From Vicinamibacterales bacterium (GTDB lineage Bacteria; Acidobacteriota; Vicinamibacteria; Vicinamibacterales; UBA8438), in contig OZ244228.1 in the NCBI GenBank assembly GCA_965217045.1, forward strand, positions 507,914 to 571,913: DNA of 64,000 nt, in the 5' to 3' direction. The first letter of the stretch is position 1. Every line of letters starts with the position of its first letter. This document shows, one piece after another, positions 2,774 through 30,280 of the stretch. Both the position numbers and the translations under genes were made by a program. The notes under the pieces are model-generated. The model ran no database searches and was not told the DNA's origin. It saw only the letters and a program-made list of their open reading frames with translations.

Positions 2774-4070
2774 AGGCCACTGGCGGCAATTAACTTGCTA
2801 TCTTCTGGGTTTCGTAGTCTATTTCGGTTGCATGCAGCGCAACGTGGAATTGGAAGCCACCATCGTCGCGAAGTACGCGGTGGTCTCGCCCGTGTTGGAT
2901 GAGCGCAGTCGCCGCCGGTGGGCGGCCACCGAGTCTTTGTTCATCGGCTATGGCGGGGACGCGCTGGTCTCGTCGGCCACGGGTCTGGCCCGGGAGACGA
3001 TCCGGAAGGGTCGCCGGGAGATCTCGCAAGGCCAAACGCCGACAGACCGGGTACGACGTCCGGGCGCCGGGCGGCCCCGTCTCGAACAGAGCCAGCCCGG
3101 TCTGCTGGCCGCACTCGAAGCGCTGGTGGACCCGCTGACGCGCGGAGACCCGACCTCGCCGCTACGCTGGACAGGCAAGAGTCGGGCGAAGCTGGCCGCG
3201 GCGCTGACACAACAGGGGTGGCGAGTGAGTTCGACCACCGTCGGCCGGATGCTGCATCAACTGGGCTACCGGCTGCAATCGCCCCGCAAGCGCCAGGAGG
3301 GAGCGAGCCACCCGGACCGTAACGCGCAGTTCGAGCACATCAACGCGACCGCGGACGCGTTTCTGGCCGAGGGGCGGCCGGTGATCTCGGTCGACACGAA
3401 GAAGAAAGAGCTGGTCGGAAACTTCAAGAACGGCGGGCGGGAATGGCAGCCGAAGGGCACGCCGCCGGCGGTGTTGGTCCATGATTTCCCAACCGACGCC
3501 GAGGGCAAGGCGATTCCGTACGGCGTCTACGACATGGCGCGCAACGAAGCCTGGGTGAGCGTGGGATGGGACCACGACACACCGACGTTCGCGGTGGCGT
3601 CGATTCGCCACTGGTGGCGCCAGATGGGCTGCGGCGCCTACCCCGACGCCACCGCCCTGTTCGTCACGGCCGATGCGGGCGGGAGCAACGGGTATCGGTC
3701 TCGCGCCTGGAAGCATGAGCTTCAACAGTTGGCCGACGAGACCGGACTGACCATCCAGGTGAGTCATTTTCCACCCGGCACCAGCAAGTGGAACAAGATC
3801 GAACACCGGCTCTTCTGTCACATCACGGCGAACTGGCGCGGCACCCCGCTGACGACCTATGAGACTATCGTCGACCGCATCGGGAACACCCGGACGGCGA
3901 CCGGGCTCCGGGTCCTGGCCGAACTCGACGCCGGGCAGTATCCCACGGGCGTTACGGTGACCAAGGAACAGATGGACGCAATCGCGCTGGTCCGCGATAC
4001 GTTCCATGGGGAATGGAATTACAAACTGTTACCCCGATGAAGTTGATAACTTTATATCGATCACTGTCCT
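2774..4070 (+). mobile_element. ISAzo13-family IS inside intron A RT
   Basis: Encloses an intact transposase; imperfect IRs AGGCCACTG.. and ..CACTGTCCT; adjacent RT sequence deleted. Confidence 0.75.
2832..4040 (+). CDS. ISAzo13-family transposase (intact, 402 aa)
   Basis: ISVDTKKKELVGNFKN, PYGVYD, TADAGGSNG, TSKWNKIEHRLF and GEWNY motifs. Confidence 0.92.
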   Translation: MQRNVELEATIVAKYAVVSPVLDERSRRRWAATESLFIGYGGDALVSSATGLARETIRKGRREISQGQTPTDRVRRPGAGRPRLEQSQPGLLAALEALVDPLTRGDPTSPLRWTGKSRAKLAAALTQQGWRVSSTTVGRMLHQLGYRLQSPRKRQEGASHPDRNAQFEHINATADAFLAEGRPVISVDTKKKELVGNFKNGGREWQPKGTPPAVLVHDFPTDAEGKAIPYGVYDMARNEAWVSVGWDHDTPTFAVASIRHWWRQMGCGAYPDATALFVTADAGGSNGYRSRAWKHELQQLADETGLTIQVSHFPPGTSKWNKIEHRLFCHITANWRGTPLTTYETIVDRIGNTRTATGLRVLAELDAGQYPTGVTVTKEQMDAIALVRDTFHGEWNYKLLPR

Positions 4071-4413
4071 TACGGGTACCGGCCAAAACGCACGGCCCAT
4101 CGGGCGGTGCACCGGGTGACGACGGCGGTCGTAAAGAACAAGACCACGGTGATAGACGTGGACTTGGCGTCGTATTTCGATACGGTTCGACACGACATCC
4201 TGCTTGGAAAAGTGGCGATTCGGGTAGACGACGACGAAGTTTTACGGCTGTTGAAGCTCATCCTCAAGGCTGGAGGCAAGCGGGGCGTTCCCCAGGGTGG
4301 GGTTATTACTCCCCGAACGCAAAAGGCAACTTTCTGTTCGATCGGGTGATCACCGGCTGGCGAGACCGACCGGTACTTGATCTACGTCTCAAGAGGTAAT
4401 ATGTTTATGCCTC

Positions 4414-4746
4414 ATGGCGCGGGCCACCAAGGCCGACAAGGCGCGCTTGCTCAACGCCGCGTACCGCCTGCTCGGACAGCAGATGGAACGCGCCGAGGCG
4501 GCCCGGCAACTCGGTCGCGAGTGCGCGTTGTCGCGCCGGCAGGCCTACCGCTATCTTCAGGAAGCGGCCGGGCTGAGCGCTCCGCTGCCGGCGGTCGAGC
4601 CGACCGTCGCAGTCACCTTCAAGCTGCCGGTCAGCACCGTACGCGCAATCCGCGCATATGCCCGCCACAGCGGACTCTCCCTCGGACAAGTCGTCACCCA
4701 GGCGGTGACGGCGTTCCTGGACAACTTCCGTCAGCGACGTGGGTGA
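4414..4746 (+). CDS. Small putative DNA-binding protein (HTH-like N-terminus, ribbon-helix-helix-like C-terminus), LSR element orf1
   Basis: 110 aa; AEAARQL..LSRRQAYRYL and TFKLPVSTVRAIRAYA..SLGQVVTQAV patterns; overlaps the next ORF. Confidence 0.65.
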   Translation: MARATKADKARLLNAAYRLLGQQMERAEAARQLGRECALSRRQAYRYLQEAAGLSAPLPAVEPTVAVTFKLPVSTVRAIRAYARHSGLSLGQVVTQAVTAFLDNFRQRRG

Positions 4747-5041
4747 ACGACAACCACGAAGAGCTCCGCGGCAGGTGCAGCTCGATTGCACGTTCGATCG
4801 ACTTCGCGACAGCAAGATCGCCCAGGCGTACACGTTGTTGGTACCGGCCTGTATGCGTCCGGTTGCAGCCCACGGAATGGAGCGTCCACATGCAGATGGC
4901 GGCGATCTACACGCGCGTGTCCTCGAATCAGCAGCGCGAAGCGCACACGATCGCGAGCCAGACGGCGGCGCTGGTCGAATGGGCAGCGACGCTCGATCTG
5001 GAGGTGCCCCGGCAATGGGTCTTCGAAGACGAAGGCTATAG
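4739..5041 (+). CDS. Small hypothetical protein, LSR element orf2
   Basis: GTG start overlaps the orf1 stop; runs into the LSR start in another frame; true length uncertain. Confidence 0.4.
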   Translation: MGERQPRRAPRQVQLDCTFDRLRDSKIAQAYTLLVPACMRPVAAHGMERPHADGGDLHARVLESAARSAHDREPDGGAGRMGSDARSGGAPAMGLRRRRL

Positions 5042-6673
5042 CGGGGCGACGCTCGAACGGCCGGGATTGGAACAGGTGCGCGACCTGGCAGCCGCCGGCG
5101 ACATCCAGGTGGTGCTCGTGCACAGTCCGGACCGGCTGAGTCGGAAGTACGCCTACCAAGTCCTGTTGATCGAAGAGTTCGGACGTCACGGGGTCGAGAC
5201 CCGCTTCCTCAACGGCCCGTCGAACGCCACGGCCGAGGATCAGCTGCTGGTGTAGTTTCAGGGCATGATCGCCGAGTACGAACGCGCTCAGATCCTCGAA
5301 CGGTCGCGTCGTGGCAAGCGGCACCGCGCGCGAGCCGGCGAGATCAGTGTCCTGGGCGGCGCTCCCTATGGTTATCGCTACATTCGCAAGCGTGATGACC
5401 ACCCGGCGGCGTACGTCGTCATCGACGCCGAAGCGCGCGTTGTCCGCGACGTCTACGAGCACTACACCGTCACGGGCTGGAGCATCGCGGCGATCACCCG
5501 CTGGCTCAACGAGCAAGGTATGCCCACGCGGAAGGTCGGCACCCGTTGGGAACGCTCCACCGTATGGGCGATGCTGCGCAATCCGGCCTATCGCGGCACG
5601 GCGTGTTTCGGCAAGACGCGACGAGCCCAACGGCAGCGCGTGACGCGCCCACTACGGCTGCGTGGCGGCGCCGCCAGTCGCGACAGTGCGAACCACGAAC
5701 GGCCGCGCGAGGAATGGATCGAGATCCCGGTGCCGGCGATCGTGGACGAGTCGACCTTCGCGCGCGCACGAACTGCTGCACGAGAACAAGGTGCACGCCC
5801 GGCGGCGCACGATCGAACTGCACGAGAACGAGCCTCGTACAGGGGCTCGTGAGTTGCCAGAAATGTGGCTACGCGCTCTCGCGCGCGTCGGCCCGGTCGA
5901 GCGCCCGGAAGATTCACTACTACCGCTGCATCGGATCCGACGGATGGCGGCACCTCGGCGGCCCCCGGTGCGACACGCGCCCCGTGCGGCAGGACCTCTT
6001 GGACGAGGTCGTCTGGACCGAAGTGATACGGTTGCTTGAGGATCCGGCACTGATCCAACAGGAACTGGATCGCCGGCTGGCCGCCGCTCAGGCTGCTGAC
6101 CCTGCGAAGACCCGCACGCAGGCGGTGGAGCGGGACCTCACTCGAGTCGGGAAGAGCATGGAACGGCTGCTCACCGCCTACCAGGAGGATCTGCTGTCGC
6201 TCGAGCAGCTACGTGAGCGGATGCCGTTGCTGCGTCAACGTGAGCAGACGCTACGCTACGAGTTGAACGCTTTGGTCGAGCAGACTCGCGAGCGCGCCGC
6301 GCATCTGCGCTTGGCCGAGACCCTGTCGGCGTTTCTCACGCGCCTGCGCGCGACGGCCGAGACGCTCGACATCGTGGAGCGGCAGCGAATCGTGCGCCTC
6401 GTCGTCAAGGAGGTCCTCGTCAATGACGACAAGATCGTGATCCGCCACTGCATTCCCGTACCCTCGGGGCCACCGCCAACGAACGGTGGCGGACCGAACA
6501 ACGACGCCGACAACGCTGCGGACCCTCGAAGTTACCTTTTGCGTTCGGGGAGTAATTTCACCCTTGCTCAGCAATCTCTATCTCAACGAGGTGGACAAGA
6601 TGCTGGAGCGGGCGAAGGACGTCACCCGACAAGGACGCTACCACTACATCGAGTATGCTCGATTCGCCGATGA
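4890..6673 (+). pseudogene. Large serine recombinase (resolvase + recombinase + Zn-ribbon + coiled coil); in-frame TAG at 5253-5255 and indels at ~5770-5850
   Basis: AIYTRVSS catalytic motif, EDEGYSG, DRLSR, AEYERAQILERSRRGK, CQKCG..YYRC. The ORF reads through attR into host RT DNA. Confidence 0.9.
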
Positions 6674-6675
6674 CC

Positions 6676-7373
6676 GTGCGCCACGAAGGCGCAGAAGGGA
6701 GGCCGAGATGGCCGCCTAGCTGCAGCCATGCTGCACGAGGGATGAGGGTAGGCCCCTCGGAGCCGCCCGGCAGGGGGAGGCTCCAAACCGCCGTGCGCTG
6801 CTTCGGTCAAGAGCCGGGGTGGTAAGCGTCACGGAAACGGCGCGGCGCGACCGCGTCAGGTAGGGTGCAGGGAGACGAAGTGGATGAACCACCGGCAACG
6901 TGTCGAAAGCGTAGGGACGGTGTCGAAACCGGGGCGAGTCGTTAACCCGGGACGAGTCCAGTGGGAGCCTGCAGCTTGGCTGGGCGGCACCCGGCATAAA
7001 GGTGGCGTGACCCTGCACCAGGCCCTTGTGTGGAACGTGGGAACCTGTCGCCTCGATGTGAAGGGAGAAATCCAAGGGGCCGACCCCCAAGGATGAGAAG
7101 CCCGATGCGAGGCACAGGGGCGGAGCGACCCGTACGAGCGATGAAGTCGGGGAAACTCGATGGAGCAAAGGGGTCGCGTCATCCAGCGTGTCCCGACGGT
7201 CAACCGCGCGTGCGGGAGGAGCCGTCGAGCCACGCGAAGCCGTTCAGGCTGTTCGCCCATTGGCATCTGCTGGGGGTGACGCTGGCGGCTGGATGATGGG
7301 AGCTGTATGAGCGGAGACGTTCACGTACAGTTCTGCGAGCGCCCGGGGGTGAGATTCCCCCGGGCGACTCACC
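6676..7373 (+). mobile_element. Group II intron B, ORF-less deletion derivative, inserted 1 nt after the RT FADD codons
   Basis: GTGCG at 6676; domain V GAGCTGTATGAGCGGAGACGTTCACGTACAGTTC; ends ..GACTCACC. Removal restores TTC GCC GAT GAC C|TG (FADDL). Near-identical to 29753-29190 plus the 3' end of the full copy. Confidence 0.92.
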
Positions 7374-7840: not shown

Positions 7841-9624
7841 GTCTTCATTTAGCGGGTTCCGGGGCAGGTGTCAAAGTTTTGACTTGTACAAATTTCGGAA
7901 CTGTGGCATAACCTTGGCGTGAAGGTCGGGGACCGCAATTCGCACGAGAACCTGCAGGCCGAGGTCGAACGGCTCCGCACGGAGTTGACGCGGCGCGAGC
8001 GCGACACCAAGAACCAGCAACGCGAGAACGGTCGCCAGCAGCGTCAGATCGACGGCCTGCAAGGCCAGATCGAGCGTCAGAAGCGGGAGATCGAGCAACT
8101 GAGGGGGCAGTTGGCCGCCGCGCGCCGGGCGGGGTTCCGACAAGCCGCCCCCTTCGCCAAGGACCGACCGCAAGGACGCGGCCGGCGTCCCGGTCGACGG
8201 GCTGGTACGCAGTATGGTCGGAAGGCGTGCCGCCCGCGCCCGGCACGGGTTGACCAGACCCTGGAAGCGCCGGTGCCGACGGCGTGTCCCGACTGCGGCG
8301 GGTCGGTCGAAGTGACCCACGTGGCGTCGCAGTATCAGGAAGAAATCCCCGAAGTGCGCCCGGTCGTGCGCCGCTTCGACATCGAAGTGGGCCGCTGCTC
8401 ACAGTGTCGGCGGCGCGTGCAGGGCCGCCACGCGCTGCAGACCTCGGATGCGCTGGGAGCGGCCGGCGCGCAGCTCGGCCCCGGCGTCGTCGCGCTGGTC
8501 GTCGAGTTGCACACGGAGATGGGCGTACCGCTGGCGAAGGTCGCCCATGTGCTGCGGACCACGTTCGGCTTACACGTGACACCGGGCGGCCTCGCCCACC
8601 TGCTGCACCGCACGGCCCGCGACGCCGCGCCGACCTACACGGCGCTGTGCGAGCAGGTCCGCAACTCGCCCACGGTCACACCGGATGAAACCGGGTGGCG
8701 CGTCGGTGCCATCAGCCACTGGCTGTGGGCCTTCGTCACCCCGGAGACGACGGTCTACGCCATTTGCCCCGGCCGCGGGTTCGACGATGCCACCACGGTT
8801 CTGGGGGCCGACTTCGCCGGGGTGCTCGTGCGCGACGGGTGGGTGTCGTATCGTTGCTACCGCGAAGCGCTGCACCAATCCTGTCTGAATCACCTACTCC
8901 GACGATGCAAGGAACTGCAGGAAGATCATCCGCACAGTCTGTGGGCCGGGCAGGTGCAAGCGGTCTTGCAGACGGGCCTTGCCGTGCGTGACCGCTGCAA
9001 CGACGGCGAGCTGAGCGAGCACGGTCTGGCATCGATCCGCGGCCGACTCGTAGCCCGGCTCGGTCGGCTCATTGACGCACCGCCACCGCTGGACGACGCC
9101 GAGCGCTTTGCCCGGCATCTGGCCACCGAATTCGCTGCCGTGTTTCTCTTCTTGTGGGACCTGTCGATCGACGCCACCAACTGGCGCGCCGAACAGGCCA
9201 TCCGTCCCGCCGTCGTTATCCGAAAGGTCTGCGGTGGCAACCGCACCCGCCACGGCGCCGACAGCCAGCAGGTGCTGGCCAGCGTCGTGCGCACCGCCCG
9301 CCAACGCGACCTCGATCTACCTCCGCTGATCGCCACGATGTTGCGCGCCACCGGTCCCGTCGTCCCCGACGCCTTCGGGCTCCCCCCGCCGCCCGCCTGA
9401 GGGTGGGCGAGCATCGCTCCCTCGCGAGACGTGAAGATCGGCAACCCCGAGACGGTCGCTTCAACTGCGACCGACCCAGGCAGGTACCGTCACGCGCAGG
9501 GGTGAAGCACCAATAGAACCGATGCAGTTCACAGCTCCGTTGCCGTTCGGAACTTCAAGAGTCCCCAACCCATTTCTGCTATTTATGCCCGTATTTGTTG
9601 AGGAATCACCCGCTAAACGAATAC
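7841..9624 (+). mobile_element. IS66-family single-ORF element in the intron A RT C-terminus
   Basis: IRs GTCTTCATTTAGCGGGT / ACCCGCTAAACGAATAC; 8-bp target duplication GGCAGAAG at 7833-7840 and 9625-9632. Confidence 0.9.
7919..9400 (+). CDS. IS66-family transposase
   Basis: N-terminal coiled coil, CPDCGG/CSQC zinc finger, DETGW, VRDGW, TNWRAEQAIRPAV. Confidence 0.9.
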   Translation: MKVGDRNSHENLQAEVERLRTELTRRERDTKNQQRENGRQQRQIDGLQGQIERQKREIEQLRGQLAAARRAGFRQAAPFAKDRPQGRGRRPGRRAGTQYGRKACRPRPARVDQTLEAPVPTACPDCGGSVEVTHVASQYQEEIPEVRPVVRRFDIEVGRCSQCRRRVQGRHALQTSDALGAAGAQLGPGVVALVVELHTEMGVPLAKVAHVLRTTFGLHVTPGGLAHLLHRTARDAAPTYTALCEQVRNSPTVTPDETGWRVGAISHWLWAFVTPETTVYAICPGRGFDDATTVLGADFAGVLVRDGWVSYRCYREALHQSCLNHLLRRCKELQEDHPHSLWAGQVQAVLQTGLAVRDRCNDGELSEHGLASIRGRLVARLGRLIDAPPPLDDAERFARHLATEFAAVFLFLWDLSIDATNWRAEQAIRPAVVIRKVCGGNRTRHGADSQQVLASVVRTARQRDLDLPPLIATMLRATGPVVPDAFGLPPPPA

Positions 9625-29204: not shown

Positions 29205-29862
29205 CGGCTCCTCCCGCTCGCGCGGTTGACCGTCGGGACACGCTGGATGACGCGACCCCTTTGCTCCATCGAATTTCCTCGACTTCATCGCTCGTACGGG
29301 TCGCTCCGCCCCTGTGCCTCGCATCGGGCTTCTCATCCTTGGGGGTCGGCCCCTTGGACTTCTCCCTTCGCATCGAGGCGACAGGTTCCCACGTTCCGCA
29401 CAAGGGCCTGGTGCAGGGTCACGCCACCTTTATGCCGGGTGCCGCCCAGCCAAGCTGCAGGCTCCCGCTGGACTTGTCCCGGGTTAACGACTCGCCCCGG
29501 TTTCGACACCGTCCCTACGCTTTCGACACGTTGCCGGTGGTTCATTCACTTCGTCTCCCTGCACCCTACCTGGCGCGGTCGCGCCGCGCCGTTTCCGTGA
29601 CGCTTACCACCTCGGCTCTTGACCGAGGCAGCGCACGGCGGTTTGGAGCCTCCCCCTGCCGGGCGGCTCCGAGGGGCCTGCCCTCATCCCTCATGCAGCA
29701 TGGCTGCAGCTAGGTGGCCATCTCGGCCTCCTTTCCGCGCCTTCGTGGCGCACAGTCGTCTGCGTAGTTGACGATTTCCGCCTCGAAGCGCCGGGCGTAG
29801 CCCATTACCTTCCAGCCCAGAATGAAGCGACGCATGTAGACGTTGCTGAACAGCGGTGAACT

Positions 29863-30280
29863 TACTCCCCGAACGCAAAAGATAACTTCGAGGGTCCGCG
29901 GCGTTGTCGGCGTCGTTGTTCGGTCCGCCACCGTTCGTTGGCGGTGGCCCCGAGGGTACGGGAATGCAGTGGCGGATCACGATCTTGTCGTCATTGACGA
30001 GGACCTCCTTGACGATGAGGCGCACGATTCGCTGCCGCTCCACGATGTCGAGCGTCTCGGCCGTCGCGCGCAGGCGCGTGAGAAACGCCGACAGGGTCTC
30101 GGCCAAGCGCAGATGCGCGGCGCGCTCGCGAGTCTGCTCGACCAAAGCGTTCAACTCGTAGCGTAGCGTCTGCTCACGTTGACGCAGCAACGGCATCCGC
30201 TCACGTAGCTGCTCGAGCGACAGCAGATCCTCCTGGTAGGCGGTGAGCAGCCGTTCCATGCTCTTCCCGACTCGAGTGAG
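29863..30280 (-). mobile_element. Right end of a second copy of the LSR element (attR plus recombinase 3' end)
   Basis: Near-identical to ~6137-6554; arm at 29863-29888 joined via an AG core to TTCACCG (S-P) of intron C RT. Confidence 0.9.

Follow-up and report, generated by a model that had tools for sequence, protein, structure and literature searches.

What kind of mobile element is the 2.25-kb insertion that splits the reverse transcriptase (RT) gene of a group II intron in a 64,000-nt stretch of a Vicinamibacterales genome (NCBI GenBank assembly GCA_965217045.1, contig OZ244228.1, positions 507,914 to 571,913; hereafter the window), and how does it come to lie where it does? We consider it very likely that the insertion is a mobile element driven by a large serine recombinase (LSR), specific for an RT motif and free in its orientation. 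The element is a cargo-free, site-specific transposon with the LSR as its sole enzyme, and its ends are near-identical inverted copies of one half-site. This instance is unusually informative because eight near-identical copies, three target families, both orientations and empty sites are found together in the same genome.

Anatomy of the Element and Its Empty Site

An earlier note, made from the sequence alone, had described the insertion as a cargo-free unit of 2.25 kb bounded by 26-bp arms identical at 25 of 26 positions, and all of its coordinates hold (Table 1). Counted with the AT dinucleotide, the inverted arms (4305-4332 and 6529-6556) are 28 nt long and complementary at 27 positions; an arm pair of this quality has a chance expectation of about 5e-9 in 3 kb. 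A scan of the window copy for domains and open reading frames (ORFs) found no gene besides orf1, orf2 and the LSR between the arms, and passenger genes (resistance, mobilisation) were absent. The interrupted RT closes upstream with ...GVPQGGV and restarts downstream with ISPLLSNLYLNEVDK, and in-silico removal of 4307-6556 restores the codons GGG GTT ATT TCA CCC. That excision at AT restores the RT codons had been proposed in the earlier note, and the exact empty site, CCC CAG GGT GGG GTT ATT TCA CCC TTG, is present in about 17 uninterrupted sister RT genes of this genome. The AT is single in empty sites and double in occupied ones, and the 2-bp repeat at the junctions reads as the footprint of a 2-bp staggered exchange.

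Pfam domains of the LSR are PF00239 Resolvase (2e-23), PF07508 Recombinase (1e-21) and PF13408 Zn_ribbon_recom (1e-9), and the same three domains are precomputed for 120/120 relatives among the matches listed. An intact sibling protein, P0001, has 553 aa with the catalytic motif AIYTRVSS at residues 5-12. The catalytic domain matches those of gamma-delta, Tn3 and TP901-1, the full-length protein matches the integrase family phrog_95 (4e-100), and a weak SbcC-like coiled-coil match at residues 408-467 is a candidate for the coiled-coil insert of the zinc ribbon by which LSRs control synapsis and direction. By its domains the enzyme is a standard large serine recombinase, and it is presumably catalytic. 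Assignment to narrower families was rejected: the XisF equivalog NF041201, the best NCBIfam match, scores 112.8 bits against a cut-off of 375, the LSR is not a member of the CcrB equivalog in NCBIfam, and the IS607 model NF033518 reaches 32.4 bits against a cut-off of 110 and covers the catalytic core only. A DDE-type transposon with a TA/AT duplication was also rejected; the unit has no DDE gene, and its ends fit an LSR half-site in length and symmetry.

The window copy itself is dead. Three lesions break its LSR gene: a TAG codon (5253-5255), the loss of 2 nt after 5766 and a duplicated 10-nt stretch around 5819-5828. Intact versions of these positions are present in other copies and in public contigs. 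In metatranscriptome assemblies (RNA runs X6, X11, X15), 59-68% of sampled words of window 4000-6900, which comprises the element and about 300 nt of flank on each side, were present, and in run X6 most of the element was covered by contigs; DNA carry-over is possible in both cases.

Table 1. Features of the element, its flanks, further copies and target sites. Plain numbers are window positions; entries of the form contig:position refer to the source assembly.
Feature	Position	Strand	Description
Whole element	4305-6556		2.25 kb, the size of an insertion sequence (IS); orf1, orf2 and LSR
Host RT, upstream half (attB left half)	4107..4304	+	Ends ...CCC CAG GGT GGG GTT; RVT_1 match; identical to uninterrupted sister copies
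Left AT, putative 2-bp crossover core	4305..4306	.	First two bases of the Ile codon ATT
Left arm, P' half-site	4307..4332	+	TACTCCCCGAACGCAAAAGGCAACTT; inverted repeat I1; conserved family-wide
Tail-coding stretch	4307..4399	+	30 codons and TAA at 4397-4399; extends the LSR frame only if the right end is joined to the left end
orf1	4414..4746	+	110 aa (108-110 in family); N-terminal three-helix helix-turn-helix and C-terminal ribbon-helix-helix
orf2	4739..5041	+	About 100 aa (97-102 in family); overlaps the orf1 stop and the first ~50 LSR codons
LSR gene	4890..6556	+	Pseudogene in the window copy; frame continues through the right arm, no stop within the element
Right arm, P half-site	6529..6554	+	AAGTTACCTTTTGCGTTCGGGGAGTA; inverted repeat I1; doubles as code for LSR residues SYLLRSGS
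Right AT, core copy	6555..6556	.	
Host RT, downstream half (attB right half)	6557..6675	+	TTCACCCTTGCTCAGCAAT...; extends to the (F)ADD codons
Truncated second copy	29861..30280 (C1:537774-538193)	-	Right-hand 420 nt; adjoins TTCACCGCTGTTCAGCAAC of another RT family; junction dinucleotide AG
RT family A site			..GCA CCG AT/T TCA CCG CTG TTC AGC AAC
RT family B site			..GGG GTT AT/T TCA CCC TTG CTC AGC AAT
RT family F site			..CCG CT/T TCT CCC TTG CTG GCC AAC
Sister subfamily copies	C2:957548-959797, C12:546363-548552, C11:313601-315020		Elsewhere L028-L030, L044

Copies and Insertion Sites in the Source Genome

The source assembly (12 contigs, 6.45 Mb) was searched for further copies. It contains eight full copies including that in the window, about 99% identical, and one truncated copy. 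Six of the seven other full copies keep an open LSR frame of 553 aa; the remaining one (C2:2068566) is interrupted, and at C2:2068566-2072306 a 1.5-kb insertion splits the element near its position 1064, where the joint has 7 additional bases (CTGGCTG). All nine copies sit at one codon boundary, PQG-x-x / I-SP, of RT genes that belong to three families (A, B and F) with only about 30-40% protein identity to one another, and both insertion orientations were observed within family A and within family B. Element haplotype 1 was found in families A and F, and haplotype 2 in families A and B in both orientations. Such a spread of haplotypes over intron families and orientations takes at least 4-5 separate events (insertions or inversions) and is incompatible with a position that was purely inherited. 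The element has recently multiplied in this genome. The host intron copies are nearly identical and offer a single informative site, and their flanks are nests of other repeats; they give no resolution for the hitchhiking on intron retrohoming that the earlier note had envisaged.

Six of the eight full copies have identical AT/AT junctions. Of about 30 AT sites, 8 are occupied by the AT-core element, as is one CT site; it was found at 0/23 GTC-GC-G AGC and 0/4 GTG-GT-T TCx sites (p=0.005).

The copy at C1:843045-845289 has the downstream half of an F-type RT on both sides, inverted (about 103 nt, 94% identity), with altered junction bases. It looks like an exchange product between two oppositely oriented copies, and the reciprocal product was not found in the genome. 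Same-half flanks were also observed in other genomes, with two downstream halves at L041, L070 and L079 and two upstream halves at L094 and L097.

Relatives in Other Genomes

Two scans of contigs from one genome per species confirmed at least 561 and at least 494 LSR relatives. Relatives with 69-96% identity were found in Vicinamibacterales and other Acidobacteriota, in Gemmatimonadota and in Alpha-, Gamma- and Deltaproteobacteria, and more than 7999 protein clusters, all generically named, matched at E<=1e-30. The fetched relatives of the main lineage are units of 2.2-2.27 kb with terminal inverted repeats of 19-37 nt.

The target specificity for the RT motif can be read directly from their flanks. 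Among 72 unique loci anchored on the arms, 60 lie cleanly oriented between the ..T-P-Q-G-x-x and S-P-L-L-x-N codons, 29 forward and 31 reverse. Of the 12 others, 10 (first fetch) were recognised by eye as RT sites that are degenerate, or rearranged with the same RT half twice. Host ORFs rejoined across the element matched RVT_1 in 5/5 cases and GIIM in 4/5. The proposal in the earlier note that the element is specialised on a conserved RT motif, for which the mapping of flanks had been suggested, is thus borne out by the same boundary in three families here and at these loci elsewhere.

Copies also occur in cultured strains, and those of Telmatobacter bradus and Bradyrhizobium elkanii are likely live. 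In Telmatobacter bradus DSM 23630, two copies of 100% identity interrupt two different RT genes; both have perfect 30-nt ends and an open LSR frame. In Bradyrhizobium elkanii USDA 76 one copy lies on a conjugative plasmid, and there are others on several Rhizobium plasmids; on the plasmid copies the RefSeq labels are 'recombinase family protein', 'ribbon-helix-helix protein, CopG family' and two 'reverse transcriptase domain-containing' fragments. Full-text literature searches found no published description of this element family, in keeping with the earlier note, which knew of none, and a large LSR survey makes no mention of RT or introns (PMC10083194).

Core Dinucleotide and Insertion Polarity

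The dinucleotides at the two junctions are identical in 31/60 oriented loci and, in most of the others, one base apart. Loci with matched self-complementary cores (AT or GC at both junctions) comprise 10 forward and 12 reverse insertions, consistent with the idea put forward in the earlier note that a self-complementary core allows either orientation. Loci with matched non-palindromic cores are polar: all four GT loci are forward and all five CT loci reverse (Fisher p=0.008), the nine being drawn from 8 different metagenome-assembled genomes (MAGs). Polarity thus depends on the core. Both orientations with AT and GC and a single one with GT and CT are predicted from the equivalence of the arms, which would leave the central dinucleotide alone to set polarity. 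The same rule is established for the serine integrases Bxb1 and phiC31, and Ghosh, Kim and Hatfull reportedly identified the core dinucleotide as the sole determinant of polarity. GC-core relatives do sit in a GC-type site (L026).

Joined Ends and the Recombinase Reading Frame

In 57/58 family members no stop interrupts the LSR frame before the right arm ends. In integrated copies it runs on into the flank for 0 to over 130 unrelated residues. Read across the right-arm/core/left-arm junction, it would gain a tail of 30-32 residues in 55/57 copies and close at a conserved TAA inside the conserved AGGTAATA. The tail peptide is itself conserved, (Y/H)SP(N/Y)AKGNFQFERV.TGWR...LDLRLKR, and shows codon-3 wobble outside the arm (0.83/0.88/0.66). 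The tail stretch does not share the frame of the RT in the window, and neither the window nor the tail peptides listed show a conserved start codon for it. The simplest reading would be that the joined-ends form is translated. As the LSR frame is closed only across the attP junction, the native full-length enzyme would come only from a circle (or a tandem). The best-conserved non-arm stretch of the left end, AAGAGGTAATATG at 4391-4405 (element positions 87-101), contains the tail TAA; it lies just upstream of the orf1 start and is similar to AAAAGGTAAC of the arms.

A search for joined ends with a degenerate arm-NN..-arm pattern returned one MAG locus and six metagenome contigs, and attP-type junctions of arm, core and arm do exist in relatives. 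In L105 an RT flank is followed by AT, the whole element, GT and the right end of the same element again (96/96 nt). In L102 a right arm is joined through GC to a sequence of the same type as its own left arm, and because the joined sequence is of left-arm type a fold-back artefact is excluded. L102 was rejected as a circular contig, its 42-nt terminal repeat being the arm only; one end of the contig has the joined-ends junction and the opposite end an integrated flank. L101 and L106 hold diverged elements paired head-to-tail, and in L103, L104 and L107 the element is joined to a 36-nt end remnant followed by unrelated DNA. In L103 (2668-5978) the left end is connected via AT to a 36-nt copy of the right end, and then come 3.3 kb of unrelated DNA with long open frames; this type of joint is either the remnant of a second copy or a hint of arms bordering other DNA. 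The copy family of the window would presumably form circles as well.

Proposed Mechanism and Alternative Explanations

In the mechanism that we favour, the element would be excised as a 2.25-kb circle, and its joined ends would make up a palindromic attP of 54 bp around a 2-bp core (AT in the present lineage). The LSR would then recombine this attP with an attB located in group II intron RT/maturase genes, namely the DNA for the motif P-Q-G-x-x-(I/A/V/L)-S-P-L-L-x-N of RT domain 4, by a staggered cut at the first two bases of the I/A/V/L codon. With symmetric arms the core alone would set polarity, AT and GC entering both ways and GT and CT one way. A target inside a multicopy, horizontally moving element would offer many neutral landing sites in many phyla.

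Several observations weigh against this mechanism. The circle junction with a palindromic attP, which the earlier note had predicted, was found in part: attP-type junctions stand in the contigs of relatives, and none was found for the own element in Logan contigs of 8 runs, a search of contigs only and of low sensitivity. The only joint in these contigs was the empty site 4304->6555, which is accounted for by the sister introns anyway. A search of viral contigs also gave no match, and the junction contigs of relatives could be tandems and not free circles. The polarity counts are small (9 loci), and about 40% of the oriented loci have unequal junction dinucleotides (GT/AT 6, AT/GT 4, etc.). 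These go against a strict rule of identical cores and call for either mismatch-tolerant exchange or later mutation. Exchange with a single mismatch, followed by heteroduplex segregation, could give the reciprocal GT/AT and AT/GT classes, with later mutation as the alternative source. The left half of attB agrees with its reverse-complemented right half at 6.5/22 positions, no better than shifted controls, and dyad symmetry of attB was rejected as the cause of the two orientations for lack of this excess. Copies of a sister subfamily (82-84% identical, GC core, with three copies of 82-83% identity in this genome) are not in RT genes, so that RT targeting belongs to the main lineage and does not extend to all close homologs. 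Finally, the AlphaFold2 (AF2) model of orf2 has a mean confidence (pLDDT) of 55 with a single predicted helix and no recognisable fold, which leaves the role of orf2 a guess.

The distribution of copies could also be sought in the host introns, with one ancient insertion spread only by intron retrohoming or segmental duplication and its specificity inherited. The host introns are multicopy and nearly identical, and some copies may have spread in this way, as in the pairs of same family and same orientation C1:512218/C2:828090 and C1:183149/C2:2068566. As a sole explanation this is already contradicted, and we regard it as extremely improbable: 99%-identical elements occupy three RT families with haplotypes that cross them, within a single intron family the element lies both ways round, unrelated RTs from several phyla are entered at the same codon boundary, and exact empty sites are present. 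We attach just as little belief to a developmentally or conditionally excised interruption, comparable to the fdxN element with XisF or the skin element with SpoIVCA, that would switch the RT on to serve the intron or the host. In its favour, excision would give back the exact RT frame, and XisF is the best NCBIfam match. Yet that match falls short of its cut-off (113 against 375 bits), the element is multicopy and lies in both orientations across phyla and RT families, most sister RT genes are uninterrupted, and many of the hosts are dead introns.

Somewhat less remote, and still improbable, is a recombinase that acts on integrated ends with no free circle, in the manner of an invertase or resolvase or by exchange between resident copies, new insertions arising by another route. 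It would account for the failure to see a circle of the own element in the Logan contigs of 8 runs, and exchange of inverted copies predicts the copies that lie between two identical RT halves (C1:843045; L041, L070, L079, L094, L097). Ordinary homologous recombination between inverted repeats of 2.2 kb accounts for these same-half flanks equally well. Moreover, conservative serine recombination needs an excised donor for a new insertion, the frame across the joined ends is under coding constraint, and contigs with joined ends exist. We retain the excised element that integrates through attP and attB as the most probable explanation.

An extension of this mechanism is possible but doubtful. 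The direction of recombination may be gated by the topology of the element, the integrated-form and circle-form tails giving two LSR isoforms for excision and integration, and the 2-bp core may set the 'host range' by codon matching, AT serving for introns with Ile, GC for those with Ala, GT for Val and CT for Leu. The basic tail of 30-32 residues would then be needed for attP x attB recombination, or would block attL x attR, and orf1 and orf2 would be helpers and not a classical directionality factor.

Comparison with Known Elements

In mode of action the element appears closest, by analogy, to the LSR transposons Tn4451/Tn4453 (TnpX) and Tn5397 (TndX). All use an LSR as the transposition enzyme and repeat a 2-bp shared att sequence at both junctions. 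Elements of the Tn4451/Tn5397 type have a GA core, and the circle junction of Tn4451 activates the expression of tnpX. Tn4451 and Tn5397 move via an excised circle, whereas here joined ends were seen only in contigs of relatives, where tandems are possible. The known transposons are 6-20 kb long with resistance, mobilisation or conjugation genes and imperfect ends; the present element has 2.25 kb, no cargo and near-perfect inverted ends of 26 nt, its cores AT/GC/GT/CT are matched to the codon, and it has a single target motif inside another mobile element. The circle of Tn4451 completes a promoter, whereas that of the present element would complete the reading frame of the enzyme. TnpX is sufficient without any other element protein, and Tn4451 has low target specificity (PMC5704250).

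With the phage serine integrases (phiC31, Bxb1, A118/LI) the element shares the domain architecture, an attP of ~50 bp with dyad symmetry around a 2-bp core, and polarity set by the core. Unlike these, it is not part of a phage or island genome, its attP is an almost perfect palindrome, and the integrase gene spans attP; its natural cores are often self-complementary, so that natural insertions go both ways. IS607 elements resemble it in being of insertion sequence size and moved by a serine recombinase. The TnpA of IS607 is a small recombinase with an N-terminal helix-turn-helix before the catalytic domain, and its elements have no long inverted ends and low target specificity.

Other elements also use mobile DNA as a target. 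Elements of the IS1111 type and group II introns target the attC sites of integrons, and we know of no case in which the RT-coding motif of group II introns is the target. Integrative and mobilizable elements (IMEs) integrate into the oriT nic site of integrative and conjugative elements (ICEs) (PMC5704250). Like these, the present family lands on a conserved sequence of widespread mobile DNA, a site that is both neutral and portable, with a different enzyme class and a different target. The frame that crosses attP has a parallel in the integration-dependent immunity of mycobacteriophages, in which, as Broussard et al. reportedly described in 2013, attP lies inside a gene and integration alters the C-terminus of the protein. 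In both systems attP is in a coding frame and the integrated and excised states have different C-termini; there a tyrosine integrase acts and the repressor gene is affected, here the serine recombinase's own gene. The element is set apart from the LSR transposons by its minimal size, an attP that is a near-perfect palindrome, a variable core matched to the codon, one conserved target within group II intron RT genes and a recombinase frame that closes only across attP.

If this interpretation is correct, an abundant family found across phyla would be added to the short list of serine-recombinase transposable elements, and it would be, to our knowledge, the first element with a specialisation for the sequence that encodes the reverse transcriptase of a retroelement. 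It would represent a clear case of one mobile element parasitising another. The inactivation of intron RT genes may limit the spread of introns in soil bacteria, and the inverted repeats that the element generates would rearrange genomes. Many RefSeq annotations of the kind 'split RT + CopG + recombinase' would be explained by it. The family would also offer a natural set of compact LSRs whose attP is short and symmetric, whose target is defined and conserved and whose cores vary naturally, and it may include a built-in topological switch of enzyme isoform.

Accessory Genes

Both small ORFs are real genes, as indicated by third-position wobble across 74 relatives (0.77/0.84/0.58 for orf1 and 0.80/0.79/0.60 for orf2). 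orf1 is intact in 69 loci and orf2 is present in about 70. The AF2 model of orf1 has a pLDDT of 89, and its C-terminal strand-helix-helix superposes locally on the ribbon-helix-helix proteins CopG and Arc with template-modelling (TM) scores of 0.6-0.77, and also on VapB, the E-values of these matches being not significant. orf1 also matches the transcriptional regulator phrog_3887 and is named 'ribbon-helix-helix protein, CopG family' in RefSeq. It is a candidate repressor or accessory DNA-binding protein. orf2 has the conserved motif F-D-R-L...K-L-A-Q-A-Y..L-V-P, with an invariant core F-D-R-L..K....Y..L.P, and had no family match in Pfam, NCBIfam or PHROGs. Our guess is that it could be a directionality factor.

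Sister Subfamily with Long Ends

The ends of the sister subfamily are about 50 nt long, with an extra outer inverted arm of 22 nt (GAAGTTGCCCCGGCTATGCGGA-GC-inner arm). In the copy on C12 the LSR stop (TAG) lies inside the outer arm, and one of the sister copies is placed 25 nt past an IS630-like fragment. We rejected the outer arms as the end of an IS630 element, the IS630-like homology stopping 25 nt short of them, and as a genome-wide palindromic repeat, there being only six half-sites in the genome. The palindrome formed by the joined outer arms, CTATGCGGAGCTCCGCATAG, occurs uninterrupted twice (C12:139653-139672 and C2:926671-926690), each time with a tyrosine-recombinase gene (MTSLRQRMLEDMQVRRLSP...) that starts about 170 nt away, and was found in 9/200 genomes of the same order. 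CTATGCGGAGCTCCGCATAG may be the target of the sister subfamily on another kind of mobile element.

The Host Intron

The host was identified as a group II intron by a match to Rfam RF02003 at 2182-2318 (119 bits) and by RVT_1 with a downstream GIIM domain. Its RT is destroyed in the window, and the same intron copy bears further insertions. The harmlessness to the host gene envisaged in the earlier note would be plausible only insofar as the target itself belongs to a parasite. An ISAzo13-family transposase gene (PF07592, 2.5e-139) and an IS66-type TnpC-like ORF also interrupt it (2832-4040, 7919-9400). In the copy at C2:828090 the LSR element is present and the ISAzo13 insertion is seemingly absent, the gap being about 1 kb shorter. 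Directly after the (F)ADD codons of the same RT lies an ORF-less group II intron at 6676-7373 (RF01999 at 6744-6861; domain V/VI RF00029 at 7298-7373), and the RT frame picks up again after it at about 7374 (LVILIDG...). The listed sister copies of this RT family continue with ...ARFADDRA, and the insertion of the ORF-less intron appears to be family-wide.

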